Source: Thermoplasmata archaeon | GTDB lineage: Archaea; Thermoplasmatota; Thermoplasmata; Lutacidiplasmatales; UBA184 | NCBI GenBank assembly: GCA_027314165.1 | Contig: DAHVCH010000008.1 | Location: 27,274-91,273, forward strand | DNA: 64,000 nucleotides | Direction of reading: 5' to 3' | Shown here: positions 48,301-57,659 of the stretch, piece after piece | Numbering within the stretch: position 1 is the stretch's first letter | Layout: each line of letters opens with the position of its first letter | Notes under the pieces: generated by a model | The model's input: only the letters and a program-made list of their open reading frames with translations | The model's database searches: none | Told to the model about the DNA's origin: nothing | Program-made: the position numbers and the translations under genes

Positions 48301-49641
48301 ATGCCTCCCCCCCCTCAACAGGACCCTTCGTCCCTTCCCCCCCCCGCGCCAGGGGCCCCGCAGGCTCCCCAGGGTACCGTGAGCCTTCAGAAGATGGCGG
48401 AGCGCCGCCTCCTCTCACGCGCCCGGGTGCTGTCCTTCGTGGTGGTGGCCCTGCTGATCGTCACGGCCGGCATCTACTCGCTCTACGCCCTCGAAGGGAT
48501 CGGCCTCACCGAGGTCGTCTTCACGAACGACGTGATCGGCTACAACACCTCGTTGAACACGACGAACCCGAACGGGTCGGTCACGACCTCGACGACCCAC
48601 GTGGGGCCCAGCATCAACTCCACGACCCCCATCGGGAGCCTTCCGATCGGTACGTACTTTGCGTTCCTGAAATGGAGCGTGCTGATCGACCTCGCTCTCG
48701 TCTGGTTCCTCGTGATCTTCACGCTCTTCTCGATCCTGCGTCCCTCGAACCTGCGAGACCCGACCAAGCTCCTGGACGTGTTCTACGCCAACCTCCTCTT
48801 CGGGGTGGTCTTCTGGCCCATCGCGGCTTTAGGGGCCTACTTCGGAACGATAGCGCCGGCGGTGATGCTGGCCGTGGGGTTCCTCCCCGCGATCGTGCTC
48901 ACGAGGTTCCTCGCACGGTTCGTCGAAGAGGGGATCGGGAGCATCCTGCTCTTCGCGATCATCATCGCGTGCATGTCCCTCGTGATGATCATGAACGTCA
49001 TCCTTTGGGCGGCCTTCCTGGGCGGATTGGGCCTCCTGCTGGTGATCTTGCTCCAGTTCGTCCCGATCCTCATCTTCCTCCTCATGGCGTTCCTCGATCG
49101 CGCCGAGCCCATCCGGAGCCGGCCGCTGGTCGGAGAGCTCCTGCTCTGGGGAGGCGTGGGCGTGGTGCTGTCGGCGGTGGTAGGGGTCGCCTTCATGGGC
49201 TCGTTCAGTGGGGCCGCTTTCGACATCCTGACGATCACCTCCCTCTTTACCGGCTCGACCGTCCTCCTAGCACCCCAGATGACCCCCTGGACCTTCATCC
49301 ACGGGATCGCGAGCTCCTCCTTGGCCAGCTTCATCGCCGAAGTGGTGCCGCTGATCTTCGGGCTCACCGGCATCCTGACCGCCGTGATGAGCATCCCCCC
49401 GCTCCTCGCCGTCCGGGACTTCCTCATGGTGCGGAACGGGACCAGCGTGGCCGACCAGTGCAAGCGCTGCAAGCGCGCGTACATCGTGATGAAGTCCCGC
49501 AACAACGGCTACTGCGAGCGATGCCGCGTCCAGCCCCAGGTGCTACGGGCGGTCCGCGGCGCGTCGGCTCTCCCCCCCTCTCCGCTGGCGCCTCCCCCCA
49601 CGGCCCCGCCCCCGCCCCCACCCCCGGCGCCGGGAAGCTGA
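48301..49641 (+). CDS. Polytopic membrane protein with C-terminal zinc ribbon
   Basis: About 9-10 TM segments; C-terminal CKRC-x13-CERC; Pro-rich termini; AT-rich AAATACTAATAAT upstream. Confidence 0.75.
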   Translation: MPPPPQQDPSSLPPPAPGAPQAPQGTVSLQKMAERRLLSRARVLSFVVVALLIVTAGIYSLYALEGIGLTEVVFTNDVIGYNTSLNTTNPNGSVTTSTTHVGPSINSTTPIGSLPIGTYFAFLKWSVLIDLALVWFLVIFTLFSILRPSNLRDPTKLLDVFYANLLFGVVFWPIAALGAYFGTIAPAVMLAVGFLPAIVLTRFLARFVEEGIGSILLFAIIIACMSLVMIMNVILWAAFLGGLGLLLVILLQFVPILIFLLMAFLDRAEPIRSRPLVGELLLWGGVGVVLSAVVGVAFMGSFSGAAFDILTITSLFTGSTVLLAPQMTPWTFIHGIASSSLASFIAEVVPLIFGLTGILTAVMSIPPLLAVRDFLMVRNGTSVADQCKRCKRAYIVMKSRNNGYCERCRVQPQVLRAVRGASALPPSPLAPPPTAPPPPPPPAPGS

Positions 49642-49707
49642 TCGGGCGGTCCCGGGTCCTCGCCCGGGCGGAACAGGGTGGCAAAGAAGTGCGGGAAATG
49701 CCCCGCG

Positions 49708-50529
49708 CTAACCCCGGAGGGCGAGCACCGGACAGGGCGCGTGCCGGAAGAGCTCCTCGACGAACCGTCGGGTGAGGAGCGGCCCCTCCTCGCGCTGCGG
49801 GTCCTCGGCCACGAGGAGGAGCCCGTAGCGCTCCCTCCGGGCCGCCTCCAGGATGATCCCGGAGAGCGCCGTGTTGCGACCGACGAGCAGTCGCGCGGGG
49901 AAGAAGACCCGACGGCGCTGGTGGGAGACCCCGCGGGGCGTGATCACCGAAGTGTGACCGGAGCCCCCGGCGACGGACCCGAGGTGCGATCCGACGCTGA
50001 TGTTGAGCGTCGTGAGCGGGATACCTCCGTGCCGCACCGCCACCTGTTCCGCGAGGAGCATGGCCTTCGGGGGAGAAGCGCCCGAGAACGACGGAAGGAG
50101 GACCTTGTCGAAATGGGCCCCCGTGAGCGCGAGACGGTTCGCGATGAGCACGTCGCAGGGGGCGTGCTGCAGGAGCGCCGTGGCCGTGTGCCCGACGAAC
50201 GGGGCGCGGCCTCCCCTCTCGCCACGGAGCGTGAAGAGGATGGCGTCGATGCTGTGGCTCTCCGCCGTCTCCAGGATCTCCGAGGCCACGTCCTTCCCCG
50301 CCCGCACCTCCGGCTCCACGGGCACGTCGAGGGCCGCCCCGGTCTCATGGGCGGGCACCACGATGTTCACCGAGGAACGCCAGAGGCGGGTGACCTCGGG
50401 GATGGTGACGGCCGGGATGACGTGGAGGACCCTGAGCTCGCCATTCGGGTCGAGAAGCTCAGCTCCGAAGCGGAGGAGAGGCTCGACCTCCTGAGGGGTG
50501 GCGACCGGGATGAGGATCTTGCGGTACAT
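49708..50529 (-). CDS. Tandem universal stress protein (USP) domain protein; KdpQ-like by position
   Basis: MYRKILIPVA...LRVLHVI...FVGHTATALLQHAPCDVLI, then a second USP domain ending FVEELFRHAPCPVLALRG. Confidence 0.85.
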   Translation of the reverse strand: MYRKILIPVATPQEVEPLLRFGAELLDPNGELRVLHVIPAVTIPEVTRLWRSSVNIVVPAHETGAALDVPVEPEVRAGKDVASEILETAESHSIDAILFTLRGERGGRAPFVGHTATALLQHAPCDVLIANRLALTGAHFDKVLLPSFSGASPPKAMLLAEQVAVRHGGIPLTTLNISVGSHLGSVAGGSGHTSVITPRGVSHQRRRVFFPARLLVGRNTALSGIILEAARRERYGLLLVAEDPQREEGPLLTRRFVEELFRHAPCPVLALRG

Positions 50530-50641
50530 CTTCAGGCCTCACCCCCGAGCTTCCCCGGGGCAGGATGAGAACGTGGGGAGGACGTTAGCCTTTGGGCGAA
50601 CGGGCCCCACCTGCTTACCACGTTCCCCAGCCCCCCTCCGG

Positions 50642-51439
50642 TCATATCCATGCCCCCGCCATCTGGGGCTGCTGGAGCAGGAGCTGATCGAGCGTGATGA
50701 CGTTCACATAGGTCGGACCGACGATCCCGGCCGCCGGAGTGACGGTCGAGTCGTTGACGAGCCCCCAGAGCACCGACACCGAGACGTTGGAGTAGTGCGC
50801 CACCCGGGGGATCTGGATGAGCGCGGCGTCGGGGTACAGGTCGGGGTCCAGCCCGCTGGCCGAGGGGGAGACGAGGTCCAGCGGCACGGTCGAGTTCCCC
50901 AGGCCGTACTCCCGGATGTAGTGCAGCGTCGTGGCCTTGAGCGCCGGGTCCACGGGTCCGTACGGGGTCTCCCCTCCGGCACCGCTGAACGTCTGCCAGT
51001 CGATCTGCGAGGGTCGCAGCCAGAAGAGCGCGGGGTTGCTCACGTTCTCCCCGAGGAGGGTGCTCAGGCTGTGCGGGGTGACAGGGGAAACCACGTCGGC
51101 GGCCAGGGTGACGACTCCCGGGTAGATGGCGCCGGTGAGGAGGATCAGGATCGCGAGGAAGACGAGGGGGCCCCTGATCGATGGGCTATGGTAGGGCGGT
51201 TCCGGCGCGAGCTCGAAGCGCAGCCGGTCCGCGACCTCGGTGCCCGTCGCCGCTCCCGCTATCGAGGAGGGGGAGGCGATCGCCGAGTCGACCTCCTTCC
51301 CTTCAGGGGCCGCGCCCGCCGGACGGTCGGTGGCATGGTCTTTGGACGGAGGGTCGGCCGGAGCGGCATGCGACGTCGCCTTCGATGGCTCGGCCCCCGA
51401 CGGCCCGTGAGACGTGGTGGGTTTCCGCGTCGCGGTCAT
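50642..51439 (-). CDS. kdpC: K+-transporting ATPase subunit C
   Basis: LTGAIYPGVVT, LFWLRPS, VPLDLVSPSASGLDPDL, QIPRVA, YVNVITLD. Confidence 0.9.
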   Translation of the reverse strand: MTATRKPTTSHGPSGAEPSKATSHAAPADPPSKDHATDRPAGAAPEGKEVDSAIASPSSIAGAATGTEVADRLRFELAPEPPYHSPSIRGPLVFLAILILLTGAIYPGVVTLAADVVSPVTPHSLSTLLGENVSNPALFWLRPSQIDWQTFSGAGGETPYGPVDPALKATTLHYIREYGLGNSTVPLDLVSPSASGLDPDLYPDAALIQIPRVAHYSNVSVSVLWGLVNDSTVTPAAGIVGPTYVNVITLDQLLLQQPQMAGAWI

Positions 51440-53562
51440 CCGACCCCCAGGAGACGGAGCAGCGAGGAGAAGAGCCCCCCGAGCAGCGAGGGGGTGAGGT
51501 AGGTCATCGCGATGTAGAGGAGCTTGATGCCGGCGAAAGCGCTCACAAGCCCCCCGGCCCCGTAGAGCACGAGGTTCCTGCGCAACAGCTCGACGGCCGT
51601 GGCGGGCCGGAAGGAGGCCCCCGTGAGGGCGAGCGGGATGAGGGCGGGGATCATGAGCGCGTTGAAGAGCAGGGCGGCCAGCACGGCGAGGTTCGGGTTC
51701 GCCAGGCCGAGCACGTTCAGGGCGGCGACGTTCACGCTGCCGACGAAGATCGCGGGGACGATCGCGAAGTACTTCGCCACGTCGTTCGTGATGGAGAAGG
51801 TCGTGAGGGCTCCCCGGGTGATGAGGAGCTGCTTCCCGATGGAGATCACCTCGATGATCTTGGTCGGGTCGCTGTCCAGGTCCACCATGTTCCCCGCTTC
51901 CTTGGCGGCGGAGGTCCCGCTGTTCATCGCGAGCCCCACGTCGGCCCGGGCGAGGGCGGGCGCGTCGTTGGTGCCGTCCCCGGTCATCGCGACCAGGTGC
52001 CCGTAGAGCTTCTCACGCTGGATGAGCTCCAGCTTCGTCTCGGGCTTCGCCTCGGCGACGAAGTCGTCCACTCCGCTCTCCTTGGCGATGGAGGCGGCCG
52101 TGAGCCGGTTGTCGCCGGTGCACATGATCGTGCGGATGCCCATGAGCTTCAGTTCCTGAAGTCGGGAGTGGATCCCGGGCTTCACCACGTCCTTCAGCAG
52201 CACGACCCCCATGATCCGCTTGTTCACGGTGATCACGAGCGGGGTCATGCCCTGGCGGGAGGCGTCCATCGCCGTCTGGCGAAGGGGCACCGGCATCGCC
52301 CCCGCGTAGTCCTCGACCGCGGACATGGCCCCCTTCATCGCCTCCGTGCCGTCCGCCAGCACGAAGCCGCTCATCCGTCGGCTCGGGGTGAACGGGACCA
52401 CCCGTCCCTCCTCCACCCGCACCGACGGGTCGAGCCGAGCTCCGCGCAGGTGCGCGAGCCGCGCGATGGAACGTCCCTCGGGGGTGTCGTCGAGCGTCGA
52501 GGCGAGCAGCGCGGCCTTCTGCACCTCCGTCGCCGAGACCGAGGGGGCCGGGACAAGCTGCACCGCAAGGCGGTTCCCCACGGTGATCGTTCCCGTCTTG
52601 TCCAGGATGAGGATGTCCAGGTCTCCCGCAGCCTCGATGGCCTTGCCGCTCTTGGCGACGACGTTCGACCTCGCGACGCGGTTCACGCCCGAGATCCCGA
52701 TGGCGGAGAGCAAGCCCCCGATGGTGGTGGGGGCGAGGCAGACCACGAGCGCGATGAGCGTCGCGATGTTCAGCGAGCCCAGTCCGGAGAAGCGGAGCAG
52801 GTAGGCCAAGGTCACCACCACGACCAGCAACGCCGTCGTGAGGGCGGTCAGGATGATCATGAGCGAGAGCTCGTTCGGGCTCTTGTCGCGGGAAGTGCTC
52901 TCGACGAGCTTGATCATCTTGTCGAGGAAGCTGGTGCCGGGCTCGGCCGTCACGCGAACCTCGATGGTACCGCGGAGGACGCGGCTGCCCCCCAGGACGC
53001 TCGTGCGGTCCCCTCCGCTCTCCCGGAGCGCCGCCTCGGACTCTCCGGTCATCATCGACTCGTCGATGAGCGCGCCACCCTTGACCACGTCACCGTCGAG
53101 GGGGATGGTGTCACCCGGGCGCGCCTCGACGAGGTCGCCCATGTGCAGGTGGGAGGGGCTCACCCAGGTCCGCCGTCCGTCCGGCAGGACCTGCCGGGCC
53201 TGGATGCCGCTGCGCATCGTCCGCAGCGAGTCCGCCTGGGCCTTCCCCTGGGCCTCGGCGATGGCCTCCGCCAGGTTCGCGAACCACAGCGTCAGCAGCA
53301 GGATGATCGCGACCTCGAGGAAGTAGGAGCGGTCGAAGCCCTCCCGGAGGAGGTCCGGGAATGCGCTGGGCACCAGCGCGATGGTCAGGACGAGGAAGAA
53401 ACAGACGTAGACCACGAACATGATCGGGTTGCGGACCTGTTCCTTCGGGTGGAACTTCTTCAGCGAGGTCTTCACCACCAGCCCGACGTTCGTGTGGGAG
53501 CGCCGGCGCACGCTGACCCGGGCCCCCGCGGGCATCGGCCCGACCTCCGCCGTCACGCTCAT
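51436..53562 (-). CDS. kdpB: K+-transporting ATPase subunit B (P-type ATPase)
   Basis: RNPIMFVV, TGES, CLAPTTIGGLL, DKTGT phosphorylation site, TGDN, GDGTNDAPALA. ATG 53562 overlaps the kdpA stop (ATGA). Confidence 0.97.
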   Translation of the reverse strand: MSVTAEVGPMPAGARVSVRRRSHTNVGLVVKTSLKKFHPKEQVRNPIMFVVYVCFFLVLTIALVPSAFPDLLREGFDRSYFLEVAIILLLTLWFANLAEAIAEAQGKAQADSLRTMRSGIQARQVLPDGRRTWVSPSHLHMGDLVEARPGDTIPLDGDVVKGGALIDESMMTGESEAALRESGGDRTSVLGGSRVLRGTIEVRVTAEPGTSFLDKMIKLVESTSRDKSPNELSLMIILTALTTALLVVVVTLAYLLRFSGLGSLNIATLIALVVCLAPTTIGGLLSAIGISGVNRVARSNVVAKSGKAIEAAGDLDILILDKTGTITVGNRLAVQLVPAPSVSATEVQKAALLASTLDDTPEGRSIARLAHLRGARLDPSVRVEEGRVVPFTPSRRMSGFVLADGTEAMKGAMSAVEDYAGAMPVPLRQTAMDASRQGMTPLVITVNKRIMGVVLLKDVVKPGIHSRLQELKLMGIRTIMCTGDNRLTAASIAKESGVDDFVAEAKPETKLELIQREKLYGHLVAMTGDGTNDAPALARADVGLAMNSGTSAAKEAGNMVDLDSDPTKIIEVISIGKQLLITRGALTTFSITNDVAKYFAIVPAIFVGSVNVAALNVLGLANPNLAVLAALLFNALMIPALIPLALTGASFRPATAVELLRRNLVLYGAGGLVSAFAGIKLLYIAMTYLTPSLLGGLFSSLLRLLGVG

Positions 53563-55259
53563 GGGAGCGTCACTCCCGAGGAGAAGGGGCCCAGGGCCAG
53601 CACGGGCAGGAAGAGGAGGCCGCTCACCACGAGCAGGAACCCGATCAGGTAGATCGTGAAGGTCGCCGACTGGGTCCGCAGGGTTCCCGGCCCCGGAGGC
53701 AGCGTGGGCTCGCGGGCGAGCGCCCCGCCGATGGCGAGCATGGCGATGATGGGCAGGAACCGGCCGACGAGCATGATCACGCCGCCCAGGACGTTGAAGT
53801 ACGGTGTGGTGTCGCCGGCGTAGCCGGGGTAGCCCATCCCGCTCCCGTTGTTCGCGGCCTCGCTCGTGAACTCGTAGAGGATCTCCGTGAACCCTTGCGA
53901 CGTGTTCCCCGCGGTGGCGTGGAGGAGCCCCGGCAAGGAGACCGTGAGCGCGAGCGGGACGAGGATCGCGAAGGGGTGGGAGAGCAGGCTCACCGCCGCC
54001 CACTTCATCTCGCTACGGCCGATCTTGCATCCCAGGTACTCGGGCGTTCGCCCGACCATGAGCCCCGCGATGAACACGGCCAGCAGCGCGTTCACCAGGA
54101 GCATCCCGAAGCCGGTCCCCACCCCTCCAGGAGAGTCCTGCAGGAACATCCCCCAGAGGAGGACCATCTGGGCCCCCGGGGTCAGCGACTGGAGGGCCAT
54201 GGCCGTCGCCCCGACGTTGGCGTAGATGCTGGTCACCTGGAACAGGGCGTCCTCCCCGAGCGAGAATCGGGTCTCGCCTCCCATCAGACCGTAGCCCGCC
54301 GATTGGGAGACCGGGAGCCCCGAGAGCGCGGGGTTGCCGAGCTCAAAGATGAAGAACAGGCCGAGCGCCACCAGGAAGATGGCCAGGACGGCCGCGATCA
54401 ACGGGTAGGCCTCCCGAGGTCGGCGGGTCATCTCGCCGAACATGAACGGCGTGGCGAACGGGATGAGCATCATGATCACGGCCCCGGTGAGGAGCACCAC
54501 CGCGGTCGGCGCCTGCAGCGGATGGGCGAAGTTCGAGGCGAAGTAACCGCCCCCATTCGAGCCCAGCAGCTCGATCCCGCCCCAGGAGGCGAGGGGGCCG
54601 GAGGGGACGAGCATCCCTCCACCTCCGAGGTCCGGGACCGTGGTGGCCTGGGCGAGGGTCTGGTCGACCCCCATGAGCACGAAGATGAGCGCGCAGATCA
54701 CGGCCAGGGGGAAGAACACCCGGGTCACGGCCCGGGTGGCGTCGGCCCAGAAGTTCCCCAGCGTCCCGTCGCGGCGGACGAAGCCTCGGATGAAGGCCAC
54801 GACCACGCAAAGCCCGCTCACCGCGGAGAGGAACATGAGCATCTGAAGGCCGGCGAGGTCGGCGAGCAGGGAGACCCCTCCTTCGCCAGCATAGTGCTGG
54901 AAGTCGGTGTTCGTCGTGAACGAGGCGGAGGTGTGGAAGGCCAGATCCCAGGACATCCCCTGGGCGGACCAGAAATTGTAGGGCAGGAGCGACTGCTCCA
55001 TCAGCAGGACGAGGACGAAGACGAGCGCGAACGCGTTCAGCAGGAGCAGGGAGGCCGCGTACTCCTTCCACCCCATCGCCCGTCGGGGGTTGGTCCCCAC
55101 GAGGCGGTAGATCCCGCGCTCGATCGGCGCGAAGAACCCGTCCAGGAGGGTCGGTCGGTCCATGAAGACCCGGGCCATGTAGATGCCGAGGTACCGGGCG
55201 AGGACGAGCCCCACCAGCAGGGCCAGGCCTACGTCCCAGACGCTGAAGATGCTGGTCAT
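53559..55259 (-). CDS. kdpA: K+-transporting ATPase subunit A
   Basis: SFTTNTDFQHYAGE, LGSNGGGYFASNFAHP, GGVGTG, GRTPEYLG, SEAANNGSG, GRFLPI. Confidence 0.97.
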   Translation of the reverse strand: MTSIFSVWDVGLALLVGLVLARYLGIYMARVFMDRPTLLDGFFAPIERGIYRLVGTNPRRAMGWKEYAASLLLLNAFALVFVLVLLMEQSLLPYNFWSAQGMSWDLAFHTSASFTTNTDFQHYAGEGGVSLLADLAGLQMLMFLSAVSGLCVVVAFIRGFVRRDGTLGNFWADATRAVTRVFFPLAVICALIFVLMGVDQTLAQATTVPDLGGGGMLVPSGPLASWGGIELLGSNGGGYFASNFAHPLQAPTAVVLLTGAVIMMLIPFATPFMFGEMTRRPREAYPLIAAVLAIFLVALGLFFIFELGNPALSGLPVSQSAGYGLMGGETRFSLGEDALFQVTSIYANVGATAMALQSLTPGAQMVLLWGMFLQDSPGGVGTGFGMLLVNALLAVFIAGLMVGRTPEYLGCKIGRSEMKWAAVSLLSHPFAILVPLALTVSLPGLLHATAGNTSQGFTEILYEFTSEAANNGSGMGYPGYAGDTTPYFNVLGGVIMLVGRFLPIIAMLAIGGALAREPTLPPGPGTLRTQSATFTIYLIGFLLVVSGLLFLPVLALGPFSSGVTLP

Positions 55260-55284
55260 GATCCCTCCGCCGTGCCCGATGGCC

Positions 55285-55395
55285 CTACAGCCGCTCCGGC
55301 CGGATCATCGCGTAGAGGAGGTAGAACACCAGGGCGACCATGACCCCTGTGAACACGACGATGCCCAGGTTCTGAAGGAGCAGGTCGCCGACCAT
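55285..55395 (-). CDS. kdpF: K+-transporting ATPase subunit F (36 aa, absent from the ORF track)
   Basis: MVGDLLLQNLGIVVFTGVMVALVFYLLYAMIRPERL*, with the KdpF C-terminal YL-x-YA-x2-RPER signature, 25 bp upstream of kdpA. Confidence 0.9.
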   Translation of the reverse strand: MVGDLLLQNLGIVVFTGVMVALVFYLLYAMIRPERL

Positions 55396-55434
55396 GTCTG
55401 CATCCGGAGGTTCCCGGCCACCTCGAGTTCACGC

Positions 55435-55472
55435 CTTAAGTCTGTCCCCTGACTCGCAACGGCTCGCCAACG
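55435..55472 (-). promoter_or_regulatory. Candidate kdpF promoter (CTTAAG) with upstream imperfect direct repeat
   Basis: CTTAAG at 55435-55440; CTCGCAACG (55453-55461) and CTCGCCAACG (55463-55472) on the plus strand, 13-32 bp upstream of the box for minus-strand transcription. Confidence 0.4.
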
Positions 55473-55520
55473 TGCGAAAGAACCCTCCGAGGAGGGCCAG
55501 GGCCGGGGAAGGTGCCCCGG

Positions 55521-55958
55521 TTACGGGGCGCTGGAGAGGTCCGGACTCGTCGTCGGGCTCCGCGCGTAGCGGGCCTTGAGCACGGCCTCGCGAAGCGCCT
55601 CGGGGTTCGCCGGGGCCCGGACCAGGCTGTCGGCCCCCAACCGGGCGTCCGGATCGCTGGACGTCGCGCCGGCGTGCGGGTCCTCCTCTCCAAACGTCAC
55701 CGCCACGACGCGCCCTCCGGGCAGCGTGCGGCGCGTCTCGCGGACGGTGTTCCGCCAGATCTCGGGCGGTCCGCTCAGACAGAGGACGACCACTCCGTCG
55801 GAGAGGTCGTAACGCGCCGAAGGCGGGATCTCGCGGGGGCTCGACACCTCGGCGGTCGCCTTGACGCCCTGGCTGGCCAGCGACTCCTTGACCAGGTAGC
55901 GTATCATCGGGTCCTCTCCGACGAGGAGGGCCCGCAGCCTCTGGGAGACCTCGGCCAC
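55521..55958 (-). CDS. Atypical (pseudo-)receiver domain protein, CheY-like fold
   Basis: ALLVGEDPMIRYLVKESL (beta1-alpha1), VVVLCLS (beta3, no Asp), VVAVT (beta4), GADSLVRAPANPEALREAV (beta5-alpha5, conserved Lys replaced). Confidence 0.65.
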   Translation of the reverse strand: MAEVSQRLRALLVGEDPMIRYLVKESLASQGVKATAEVSSPREIPPSARYDLSDGVVVLCLSGPPEIWRNTVRETRRTLPGGRVVAVTFGEEDPHAGATSSDPDARLGADSLVRAPANPEALREAVLKARYARSPTTSPDLSSAP

Positions 55959-56107
55959 GTCTAGGGCGAGCTTGGCGGCCTATATCTGTATAATGTTACA
56001 CACCCGGTGGGTTCCCGGAGGTCCTTCCGGCCGAACGGCGGCCGCGCGGGACGGCCACTCCCTGGTACCCTGGGAGGGGGCACCCGTCACACCCACGGAA
56101 GGGAAGC

Positions 56108-56117
56108 TATTGATATA
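56108..56117 (+). promoter_or_regulatory. TATA-like box upstream of SUI1
   Basis: TATTGATATA ending 26 nt before the TTG start, compatible with a leaderless or very short-leader transcript. Confidence 0.5.
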
Positions 56118-56143
56118 CCGCCGTCCTCTTCTCCACTGACACC

Positions 56144-56422
56144 TTGCAGGACTACGACCCTCTCCGGGAAGTTACCCAAGAACTCGACAGAGAAGAAGCC
56201 GTTCTGAGCGTCCGCGTGGAGCGGCGTCGGTACAACAAACCGACGACGGTCATCACGGGATTCCCGAAGGACGCTGACCTTCATGGGATCGCGAAGCAGC
56301 TCAAGACCTCGCTCGCCACCGGAGGGACCGGCAAGGACGGGGAGATCGTCCTGCTGGGCGACCACGGACGGCGCGCGAGGGAGAAGCTCGAGACCCTCGG
56401 CTACCACGTCGCCGAGGCGTGA
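56144..56422 (+). CDS. sui1: Translation initiation factor aIF1 (SUI1/eIF1 family)
   Basis: LDREEAVLSVRVERRRYNKPTTVITG...AKQLKTSLATGGTGKDGEIVLLGDH; TTG start with an in-frame stop at 56111. Confidence 0.92.
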   Translation: MQDYDPLREVTQELDREEAVLSVRVERRRYNKPTTVITGFPKDADLHGIAKQLKTSLATGGTGKDGEIVLLGDHGRRAREKLETLGYHVAEA

Positions 56423-56455
56423 GCGGTCGGCTCCAGGGATGGAGCGGGGTCAGCG

Positions 56456-56812
56456 ATGGCCATCCAGCCCCTTCAGCCCGATGACGACGACCTGGAAGCG
56501 CCGTTGGCGCTGGACGACGCGTTGCTCGAACGGGCCGTCCAACTTTACAGCGAACTCCGTTTGATCAAGCGGCCACCGGAGGGCGCCCCCGGGGCCGAGC
56601 GCAAGAGCGTCCGGTGGCTCCGGGAAGAGGCGGAGCGGCTCGGACGGGACTTTGATCCCGCCTGGGTCCCCTGGCTCCGACGGGCGTTCCTGGAGATCGA
56701 GGGTGACGTCAAGGAGAGCGTGGCCAGGCGGCGTTTCGCCTGGCACGGGGGCCCCCGGCGGAGCCGGGAGCCCCCGTCGCTGAGCGAGGCGCTCAGCTGT
56801 GGTTCCAGGTGA
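56456..56812 (+). CDS. Hypothetical protein
   Basis: 118-aa helical-looking ORF 33 bp after sui1; the 3' end overlaps the convergent peptidase gene. Confidence 0.55.
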   Translation: MAIQPLQPDDDDLEAPLALDDALLERAVQLYSELRLIKRPPEGAPGAERKSVRWLREEAERLGRDFDPAWVPWLRRAFLEIEGDVKESVARRRFAWHGGPRRSREPPSLSEALSCGSR

Positions 56813-57659
56813 CCGAGAAGTCCTCACCGGAGCCGGAGAGGCCGCTCGGCGCCGCCTTGACGTAGTTCTTCCCGGACATCGTGATCTCGGCCGCGGCCCA
56901 GGACGAGTCCTGGATCGCGCCCGTGGTGCCGCTGATGGTCGCGGTGCACGCCGTGAAGTCGACCGTCCCGAAGTCCGCGAGCGGAAGGACACGGCCGGAG
57001 GAGGGGGCTTCCGCGATCCACTCGGCGCTCGAGCGCTGAGCGTTGCTGACGCTCCCATTCTGGAAGTAGACCCAGTTCGCGGTGGTGTCCGCGACGCTGA
57101 CCTCGAAGTTCGTGCCGCCCGTCCAGAGGACTTGGGCAGTGATCACATCGCCGGGGGTCACGGGGTACAGGGTGGTCGGAAGGTTCACGGGGTAGGCCGG
57201 ATAGAACTCGTACCAGGCGTAGTAGGAGGGTGCCCCGGACGCGCAGTCCGAGTCCGTGCCCGTCTGCTCCACGGTGGAGCTCGAGTATCCGTCGATCCCG
57301 ACCCAGAACGCGGAGTAGGAGTCATGCGTGCCGCACTGGACGCTCGGCTGGGTCCAGCTGCCCTTGACGTCGCTGACGGCGTTAGTTGCGGGCGAGGAAA
57401 GGCAGGTCTCCGCCGCGTACCCGCCCCAGTTGGAGCTCGAGGTCTGCGTGACGATGCCGGTCCCACATGCGCCGGTCCCGCCACCACCGCCGTGGCCGTG
57501 GCCGTTGCCGAACTGCACGTGGGAAGCCGCGACCGCGTGGGCGACCGCAGCTCCGGATAGGAGGGCCGGTAGAAGGAGGACCGCGAGGGCTGCGATCCCA
57601 GCGGGGGCCAAAGTCGCCAAGGTTGCTCGTCGGTGAGACCGGAGGGGTTGGTGGGTCAT
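56793..57659 (-). CDS. Secreted G1-family glutamic endopeptidase (eqolisin / peptidase A4)
   Basis: Signal peptide; SSNWGGY, WVGIDG, EQTG (catalytic Q), AWYEFYP, SAEWIAE (catalytic E), LADFGTVDFT. Confidence 0.92.
   Translation of the reverse strand: MTHQPLRSHRRATLATLAPAGIAALAVLLLPALLSGAAVAHAVAASHVQFGNGHGHGGGGGTGACGTGIVTQTSSSNWGGYAAETCLSSPATNAVSDVKGSWTQPSVQCGTHDSYSAFWVGIDGYSSSTVEQTGTDSDCASGAPSYYAWYEFYPAYPVNLPTTLYPVTPGDVITAQVLWTGGTNFEVSVADTTANWVYFQNGSVSNAQRSSAEWIAEAPSSGRVLPLADFGTVDFTACTATISGTTGAIQDSSWAAAEITMSGKNYVKAAPSGLSGSGEDFSVTWNHS

Follow-up and report, generated by a model that had tools for sequence, protein, structure and literature searches.

A kdpFABCQ-type potassium-pump locus without KdpD/KdpE in a Thermoplasmata archaeon, with an aspartate-less receiver gene as candidate accessory regulator

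How is a Kdp potassium pump controlled where neither KdpD nor KdpE is encoded? The question is raised by a 64-kb stretch of DNA (hereafter the window; 64,000 nucleotides of contig DAHVCH010000008.1, G+C content ~70%) from a Thermoplasmata metagenome-assembled genome (MAG) of 2.54 Mb and 85.7% completeness. Between positions 49708 and 55958, its minus strand carries six co-oriented genes: a gene for an atypical receiver (here termed pREC), kdpF, kdpA, kdpB, kdpC, and a gene for a tandem universal stress protein (USP). All six had been listed in a first-pass annotation of this DNA and were found on the minus strand where it placed them. Our reading, which we hold with a little more belief than doubt, is that we are dealing with an archaeal Kdp potassium-pump operon of the kdpFABCQ type, independent of KdpD/KdpE, together with a clade-specific accessory regulator, pREC. 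The latter is the new element of the locus; it is previously undescribed and is found only beside the Kdp pump in a few related genera.

The genome, at its 85.7% completeness, gave no match to the KdpD domain (PF02702) and none to the OmpR-type output domain (Trans_reg_C, PF00486). No histidine kinase is encoded on the kdp contig, and the 16 Response_reg and six HATPase_c matches in the genome are all on other contigs. The claim that kdpD and kdpE are absent was borne out. Genomes of the class Thermoplasmata generally lack KdpD, and this one is no exception: in a class sample of 401 genomes, kdpA was found in 126 and a clear KdpD domain in only five. Within the family to which the locus belongs (f1), kdpA was found in every sampled genome listed, and PF02702 scored above its cut-off in none of the sampled genomes. 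The five KdpD-bearing genomes (loci L087–L091) come from three distant families (f8, f27, and f28). Their gene order is kdpB-kdpC-kdpA, and an open reading frame (ORF) of 660–770 aa with the KdpD domain adjoins kdpA. A significant fraction of Archaea has been reported to lack any form of KdpD (PMC11018627).

The gene at the 3′ end of the locus (49708–50529, minus strand) encodes a KdpQ-like tandem USP of 273 aa. PF00582 matches residues 1–129; the second domain is invisible to this profile and can be seen only in the predicted fold. The AlphaFold2 model (predicted local distance difference test [pLDDT] score of 86, predicted TM score of 0.85) contains two USP domains, and its best Foldseek matches are tandem USPs, namely UspE/YdaA, Rv2623, TTHA0350, and the A. 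fulgidus (Archaeoglobus) structure 3loq. On plasmid pNRC200 of H. salinarum, kdpF-A-B-C are followed directly by VNG_RS11195, which encodes a 272-aa protein with two USP domains. In PMC8303175, which cites Kixmuller et al. (2011), this gene is kdpQ, a positive auto-regulator of Kdp; the Halobacterium kdp promoter and operator were mapped in the same study, as cited in PMC4299497. Halobacterium is the only case in which a positive effect of KdpQ on kdp expression is known. The window protein is 26% identical to H. salinarum KdpQ (E = 7e-6 in a pairwise comparison), with the alignment collinear and limited to domain 1. When KdpQ was used as a tblastn query, the USP gene was matched in many kdp loci (E = 1e-4 to 1e-13).

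The window thus has the KdpQ-type layout, with a tandem USP of ~270 aa directly 3′ of kdpC and on the same strand. The USP family comprises at least 451 homologues. The same USP follows kdpC in genera g1–g7 of family f1 (except at one divergent locus pair), in family f3 of the same order, and at one locus of family f10. The USP half of the locus is already known: it has the Halobacterium kdpFABCQ layout, which prevails in the family and in its order. The first-pass annotation had called the 3′ gene KdpQ-like, and it matches H. salinarum KdpQ in size, architecture, and position; for the USP part, its further proposal of a "third arrangement" did not hold. At two loci of genus g4 in family f1 (L068 and L069), a tblastn search with the window KdpC found nothing between kdpB and the USP gene. 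Matches of the USP to Haloferax proteins annotated as amino acid permeases were set aside, as they are to C-terminal USP domains of transporters that are not linked to kdp.

USP domains commonly bind adenine nucleotides, and control of the pump through a nucleotide ligand of the USP protein, c-di-AMP (cyclic di-AMP) or ATP, in the manner of the USP domain of KdpD, had been suggested for this locus. The USP domain of S. aureus KdpD binds c-di-AMP (PMC4686210), and the Foldseek matches of the window USP include ATP-bound tandem USPs (TTHA0350 and Rv2623). The searches pointed the other way. The diadenylate cyclase domain (DAC, PF02457) was found neither in this genome nor in any of 61 family genomes, and control archaeal genomes do match it. 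The interval 49000–57000 has no Rfam match at E ≤ 1, hence no c-di-AMP riboswitch, nor any other known RNA. Neither of the hallmarks of a c-di-AMP-controlled Kdp system (diadenylate cyclase and/or riboswitch) is therefore present, and on these searches c-di-AMP is an unlikely ligand, close to refuted. The G-x2-G-x9-G(S/T) motif of ATP-binding USPs of the MJ0577/UspFG type, read by eye from the alignment, occurs in neither domain. Domain 1 has G-x2-R/G-x6-G-H-T (G-[DE]-R-x-x-R-x-P-F-V-G-H-T) with a shorter loop, in a part of the model of low confidence; domain 2 has no ATP motif at all. We consider control through a nucleotide ligand quite improbable.

What, then, is the gene at the 5′ end? pREC (55521–55958, minus strand, GTG start) encodes a 145-aa protein, a stand-alone aspartate-less Cys-type pseudo-receiver. 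G+C at third codon positions is ~0.93, which indicates that this strand carries a real gene. There are 22 homologues (47–93% identity), and 27 of ~125 core columns are invariant, including C60, T88, D104, and G108-A109-D110. The ratio of nonsynonymous to synonymous substitution rates (dN/dS) is 0.16–0.25 for pairs with unsaturated dS. By these measures of sequence conservation, pREC is a real gene under purifying selection. The N-terminal strand (RLRALLVGEDP) is conserved, so the GTG at 55958 is the true start. Database entries for 14 of the 22 homologues start at an internal Met (MIRYLV...) and therefore miss the conserved β1; this looks like a systematic miscall of the start codon (internal-Met entries P0002, P0003, P0005–P0007, P0009, P0011, and P0013–P0018).

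The AlphaFold2 model of pREC (pLDDT of 74) has the (βα)5 topology, with β1 to α5 in order. When the model was compared with the PDB by Foldseek, the top 50 matches were all receiver domains, with a probability of 1.0 and TM scores of ~0.6. In a profile search of the PDB, the best match, over the full length, was CheY (4qyw, E = 0.017). The fold of a receiver is thus present, and a PF00072 match at the gathering threshold is not: Pfam gave nothing at E ≤ 0.1, NCBIfam gave nothing, and a search of the genome with PF00072 also missed pREC. The description of the gene as an atypical receiver was right for fold and motifs, even though no Pfam family matches. A profile search of 1.84 billion representative proteins found only four clusters belonging to the family. 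The next small single-domain matches are true Response_reg proteins (E = 5e-5 to 5e-4). A wider pREC family was considered and rejected, as matches beyond the four clusters are weak and are to ordinary receivers or repetitive proteins. No paralogue was found in the same genome, even at E = 10.

A receiver fold beside kdp, with the KdpE structures 4kny and 4kfc among its Foldseek matches, could be what remains of a KdpE that has shed its DNA-binding domain, KdpD having been lost as well. In the same list, however, dozens of unrelated receivers rank at least as high as KdpE, and within the class KdpD is confined to loci with kdpB-C-A order in distant families. Purifying selection and a highly conserved pocket are also unlike a decaying relic. 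Bacterial kdpDE lie downstream of kdpC rather than upstream of kdpF, which counts further against such an origin. We regard a decayed KdpE as very unlikely.

A canonical receiver has five catalytic residues (DD, D, T/S, and K), of which pREC retains just D16 and T88. The phospho-acceptor Asp is replaced by C60 (VVVLCLSGP), which is the only Cys in pREC, is invariant in 23 sequences, and falls at the phospho-site position of the CheY 4qyw chain in the profile alignment. The receiver Lys is replaced by Ala or Gly (R-A-P; LV-x-AP), and the first acidic residue varies between E, Q, and R. The second acidic residue (D16), T88, and the loops around the former active site are strongly conserved. Judged by these residues, pREC is not phosphorylatable. 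The earlier prediction of a phosphorylation-independent receiver is in keeping with this, the 5′ gene having neither the phospho-acceptor Asp nor the Lys. By published definitions (PMC12632262; PMC4395418), pREC falls in the Cys-type class of pseudo-receivers, or aspartate-less receivers (ALRs).

C60 invites the explanation that pREC is a thiol switch, responsive to redox state or to metal, in which the invariant Cys is oxidised, modified, or metal-bound in place of phosphorylation and couples Kdp to the redox state. It is the sole Cys and adjoins two conserved residues of the former active site, D16 and T88. According to Maule et al. (2015; PMC4395418), Cys-type ALRs are a recurring class for which redox sensing is proposed. 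On the other hand, structural constraint alone might explain why a small buried residue is conserved here, and no redox genes lie nearby. We give this explanation only a small likelihood.

The position of pREC was followed through its relatives, in a set made up of six Thermoplasmata MAG loci, five class-sample genomes, and metagenome contigs. In every contig that reaches far enough (~12 contigs from at least five genus-level lineages), kdpF-kdpA come directly after pREC, and where contigs continue, kdpB, kdpC, and the USP gene also follow. The first-pass annotation had named a receiver gene unlinked from kdp in relatives as the observation that would speak against its proposal; the two are linked in all ~12 informative contigs. 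Within the class sample, three genera of family f1 (g1, g5, and g6) and no others have pREC; it is also present in the MAG lineages L015 and L016. On a tree of KdpA and KdpB, the pREC loci all fall in one clade (Shimodaira-Hasegawa-like approximate likelihood ratio test [SH-aLRT] support of 90), which also contains genus g3 and one divergent locus pair, both without pREC. Such a distribution could have arisen from a single gain followed by losses or from two to three separate gains.

Some further loci differ around the pREC slot. A distant pREC paralogue of 183 aa is encoded at L028:1318–1869 (plus strand; genome G380, genus g7), away from kdp. It has Glu at the phospho-site (VVFIEAVG), shares the motif W-x6-TRR-x-LP-x2-R-x-V-x-VT, and is followed by a gene for a small membrane protein with a zinc ribbon. 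At L065 (genus g3), the interval between SUI1 and kdpF holds two 115-aa ORFs on the opposite strand at the pREC slot; one encodes a membrane protein that carries a zinc ribbon (CPKC...CPIC), and the other includes a 50-aa fragment without a Pfam match. Two genomes of genus g2 (L061 and L063) have kdpFABC with neither the USP gene nor pREC. In both, the next ORF after kdpC contains a GTSGWDYPEW motif and is presumably DUF72-like. These two loci are placed apart from the other g2 loci on the KdpAB tree, which suggests that the operon was transferred within the family.

The spacing of AT-rich elements bears on how the six genes may be transcribed. A TATA-like element (55980..56002, minus strand) lies ~22–45 nt ahead of the pREC start codon, GTG. 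Across the 64-kb window, just seven patches have A or T at 11 or more of 14 positions, and this is one of them; each of the seven lineages compared has an AT-rich box equally far upstream of pREC. This element is a putative promoter of a leaderless or near-leaderless pREC transcript. Between pREC and kdpF there is a second TATA-like box (ACTTAAGGCGT, 55431..55441, minus strand), ~40 nt ahead of the kdpF ATG. Every pREC-bearing lineage has a comparable box (CTTAAG, CTTATGAAG, CTTTATGAAG, ATTTATCAAG) at the same distance from kdpF, and genera without pREC have GCTAAATAC-type boxes at the corresponding position. This second box is a putative kdpFABC-USP promoter.

Other signals were less informative. 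A scan for bacterial-type promoters, which is not appropriate for archaea, found nothing. A pattern scan picked out a terminator-like GC hairpin with a T-rich tail (49691..49706, minus strand) directly after the USP stop; terminator-like sites in the region are no more numerous than in shuffled sequence, making this weak evidence. Each lineage has GC-rich inverted repeats in the stretch from the TATA-like box to kdpF. A conserved RNA hairpin in the kdpF leader was considered and rejected: folding energies are no better than those of shuffled sequences in five of six lineages (z = −1.2 to +1.1), the only other being L015 (z = −2.9). An AT-rich patch at 56104–56117 lies ~26 nt upstream of SUI1, in the divergent intergenic region that it shares with pREC.

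Several points weigh against pREC, or the USP, as a regulator of the pump. The sister genus g3 retains SUI1, kdpFABC, and the USP gene without pREC; pREC is therefore dispensable for the pump. The clade is shallow (KdpA is at least 54–60% identical across it) and the divergent upstream SUI1 is as syntenic as pREC, so the adjacency could be inherited gene order. The conserved neighbourhood of pREC and kdp is for this reason weaker functional evidence than it appears. The element upstream of pREC is probably a promoter of its own, with a separate one kept by kdpFABC-USP, although transcription may run on from pREC into kdpF. We infer a role of pREC in Kdp control from its position only. As for the USP, its orthology with KdpQ is weak at the sequence level, and it could have been recruited independently.

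The main alternative takes up these points and proposes that pREC is unrelated to potassium: it would be a lineage-specific small signalling protein, and its adjacency to kdp would be gene order inherited in a shallow clade. SUI1 is kept at the locus in every contig with pREC as well as in g3, and pREC has its own predicted AT-rich promoter element, kdpF having a separate one. Two groups inside that KdpAB clade, g3 and the L061/L063 lineage, are without pREC, which they either lost or never acquired. The distant g7 paralogue (L028) lies away from kdp. Against this, pREC is co-oriented with kdpF at a distance of 125 bp, and in ~12 contigs none is found away from kdp. The downstream context differs between genera while pREC and kdp stay together. 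In other families, the slot is taken by a small sensor protein that is not homologous to pREC, which suggests that the position is regulatory. We judge this alternative rather unlikely.

The reading that we prefer, a kdpFABCQ-type operon with pREC as an accessory regulator, can be cast as a mechanism. The USP gene would be co-transcribed with kdpFABC and would be the counterpart of KdpQ, the positive co-regulator of Halobacterium kdp expression. A subclade of the family would have added pREC directly upstream of kdpFABC-USP as an accessory, dispensable Kdp regulator that acts by protein-protein contact and not by phosphotransfer. pREC has no DNA-binding domain; its likely partners are therefore the USP protein, the cytoplasmic domains of KdpB, or a transcription factor. 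Contact would most likely be made through the conserved face around C60, T88, and W68, with the pocket around C60 as a sensing or contact site. What the analysis shows is the gene content, the fold and residue pattern of pREC, the size of its family, its strict adjacency to kdp, and the absence of KdpD/KdpE and of c-di-AMP synthesis; the mechanism is inferred. The proposal of the first-pass annotation that a receiver and a USP control the pump stands in part. The lack of KdpD/KdpE, the KdpQ-like USP, and the linked, non-phosphorylatable receiver speak for it; the restriction of pREC to a subclade, its absence from g3, and its probable own promoter speak against it.

The pump genes themselves are all present, with KdpF, KdpA, KdpB, and KdpC, the components of the KdpFABC complex, encoded together on the minus strand. 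kdpF (55285–55395) was read directly from the sequence and encodes 36 aa with the typical YLLYAMIRPERL tail at the end; it scores 23.9 bits against TIGR02115, just below the cut-off of 26.85, and is present in every related locus. kdpA (53559–55259) matches PF03814 over its full length (E = 2.6e-171). kdpB (51436–53565) scores 835.7 bits against the TIGR01497 equivalog (cut-off, 527.9) and is also matched by PF00122 and PF00702. It encodes the P-type ATPase subunit, with the TGES motif present; the start chosen overlaps the kdpA stop and agrees with relatives from residue 2. kdpC (50642–51439), whose start overlaps the kdpB stop, matches PF02669 at residues 92–253 (E = 1.4e-28). Residues 1–85 of KdpC (51185–51439, minus strand) form a poorly conserved Pro/Ala/Ser/Thr-rich extension ahead of the membrane anchor. 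The closest relative is the only one in which this extension of ~85 aa can be aligned; other genera have a shorter or different one. The intergenic gaps measure 125 bp between pREC and kdpF and 112 bp between kdpC and the USP gene; the latter is 7–30 bp in relatives. Upstream of pREC, the divergent neighbour is the aIF1/SUI1 gene (56144–56422, plus strand, TTG start).

Small sensor genes of other kinds are found at related pumps. Nearly every sampled Thermoplasmata kdp locus has at least one small sensor-domain gene, and the 5′ slot is used by two unrelated domain types. At eight loci of families f20 and f34 (L080:8421–8714, L081, L092, L093, and L095–L098), a stand-alone Lrp/AsnC RAM protein (PF01037) of 73–104 aa is encoded directly upstream of kdpF/kdpA and co-oriented with it. 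At L077:3518–3775 (family f10), a co-oriented gene for a stand-alone RAM protein (PF01037) of the same size range lies downstream of kdpC instead. The stand-alone RAM protein is another candidate for a KdpD-independent regulator, and its presence in the same 5′ slot lends indirect support to a regulatory role of pREC. Seven f20 loci (L082–L086, L094, and L099) have a tandem USP of ~270 aa (PF00582) just after kdpC on the opposite strand, convergent with the pump genes. This USP is only distantly related to the co-oriented KdpQ-like one.

These loci allow a more general scheme, in which archaeal Kdp pumps without KdpD/KdpE would be run by kinase-free small sensor proteins at both ends of the operon: a KdpQ-type USP at the 3′ end and, in an interchangeable 5′ slot, a Cys pseudo-receiver or a RAM protein. 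In the present case, the Cys would be a thiol or metal switch that signals to the USP or to KdpB. The scheme is speculative, and we think it unlikely in this full form. For Halobacterium, where an operator and the co-regulator KdpQ are known, we know of no sensor that has been identified. pREC is a concrete candidate for KdpD/KdpE-free regulation of archaeal Kdp. Should it act on Kdp, nature would have supplied a clean case in which a receiver fold standing alone works on a transporter system without phosphorylation, and experiments could readily start from the one invariant Cys. Otherwise, the locus is just one more kdpFABCQ-type operon.

Among known systems, bacterial KdpD/KdpE, in which KdpD has an N-terminal serine kinase and a USP domain (PMC11018627), likewise places a USP module and a receiver-fold module beside the pump genes. 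The present locus differs in having no KdpD domain, histidine kinase, DNA-binding output domain, or phospho-acceptor, and its two modules are separate small proteins encoded at opposite ends of the operon. Closer to it is kdpFABCQ of H. salinarum (pNRC200, VNG_RS11175–VNG_RS11195), where a co-oriented gene for a tandem USP of ~272 aa also follows directly after kdpF-A-B-C. That locus, too, is without KdpD/KdpE and has an archaeal promoter with a TFB-recognition element (BRE) and TATA box, as given in PMC8303175 and PMC4299497. It has no co-oriented gene upstream of kdpF, the neighbour there being a divergent trkA; of the two, only the window has a pseudo-receiver. TeaD of Halomonas elongata binds ATP and has a regulatory role. 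Its gene, like the USP gene here, stands at the 3′ end of a transporter operon (teaABCD, a tripartite ATP-independent periplasmic [TRAP] transporter), and its structure (PDB 3hgm) is among the structural matches of the window USP; it is a single-domain USP, and the transporter is of another type.

For pREC itself, the nearest known counterparts are the Cys-ALRs of Maule et al. (2015; PMC4395418). They share the (βα)5 fold, a Cys at the phospho-acceptor position, and the loss of other catalytic residues, and their activity is presumed to be independent of phosphorylation. The 26 catalogued there were drawn from Pfam REC matches and, as described in that paper, are bacterial and mostly carry output domains. 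pREC, by comparison, is archaeal and single-domain, is too divergent for PF00072 to detect, and belongs to a tiny, clade-restricted family tied to kdp.

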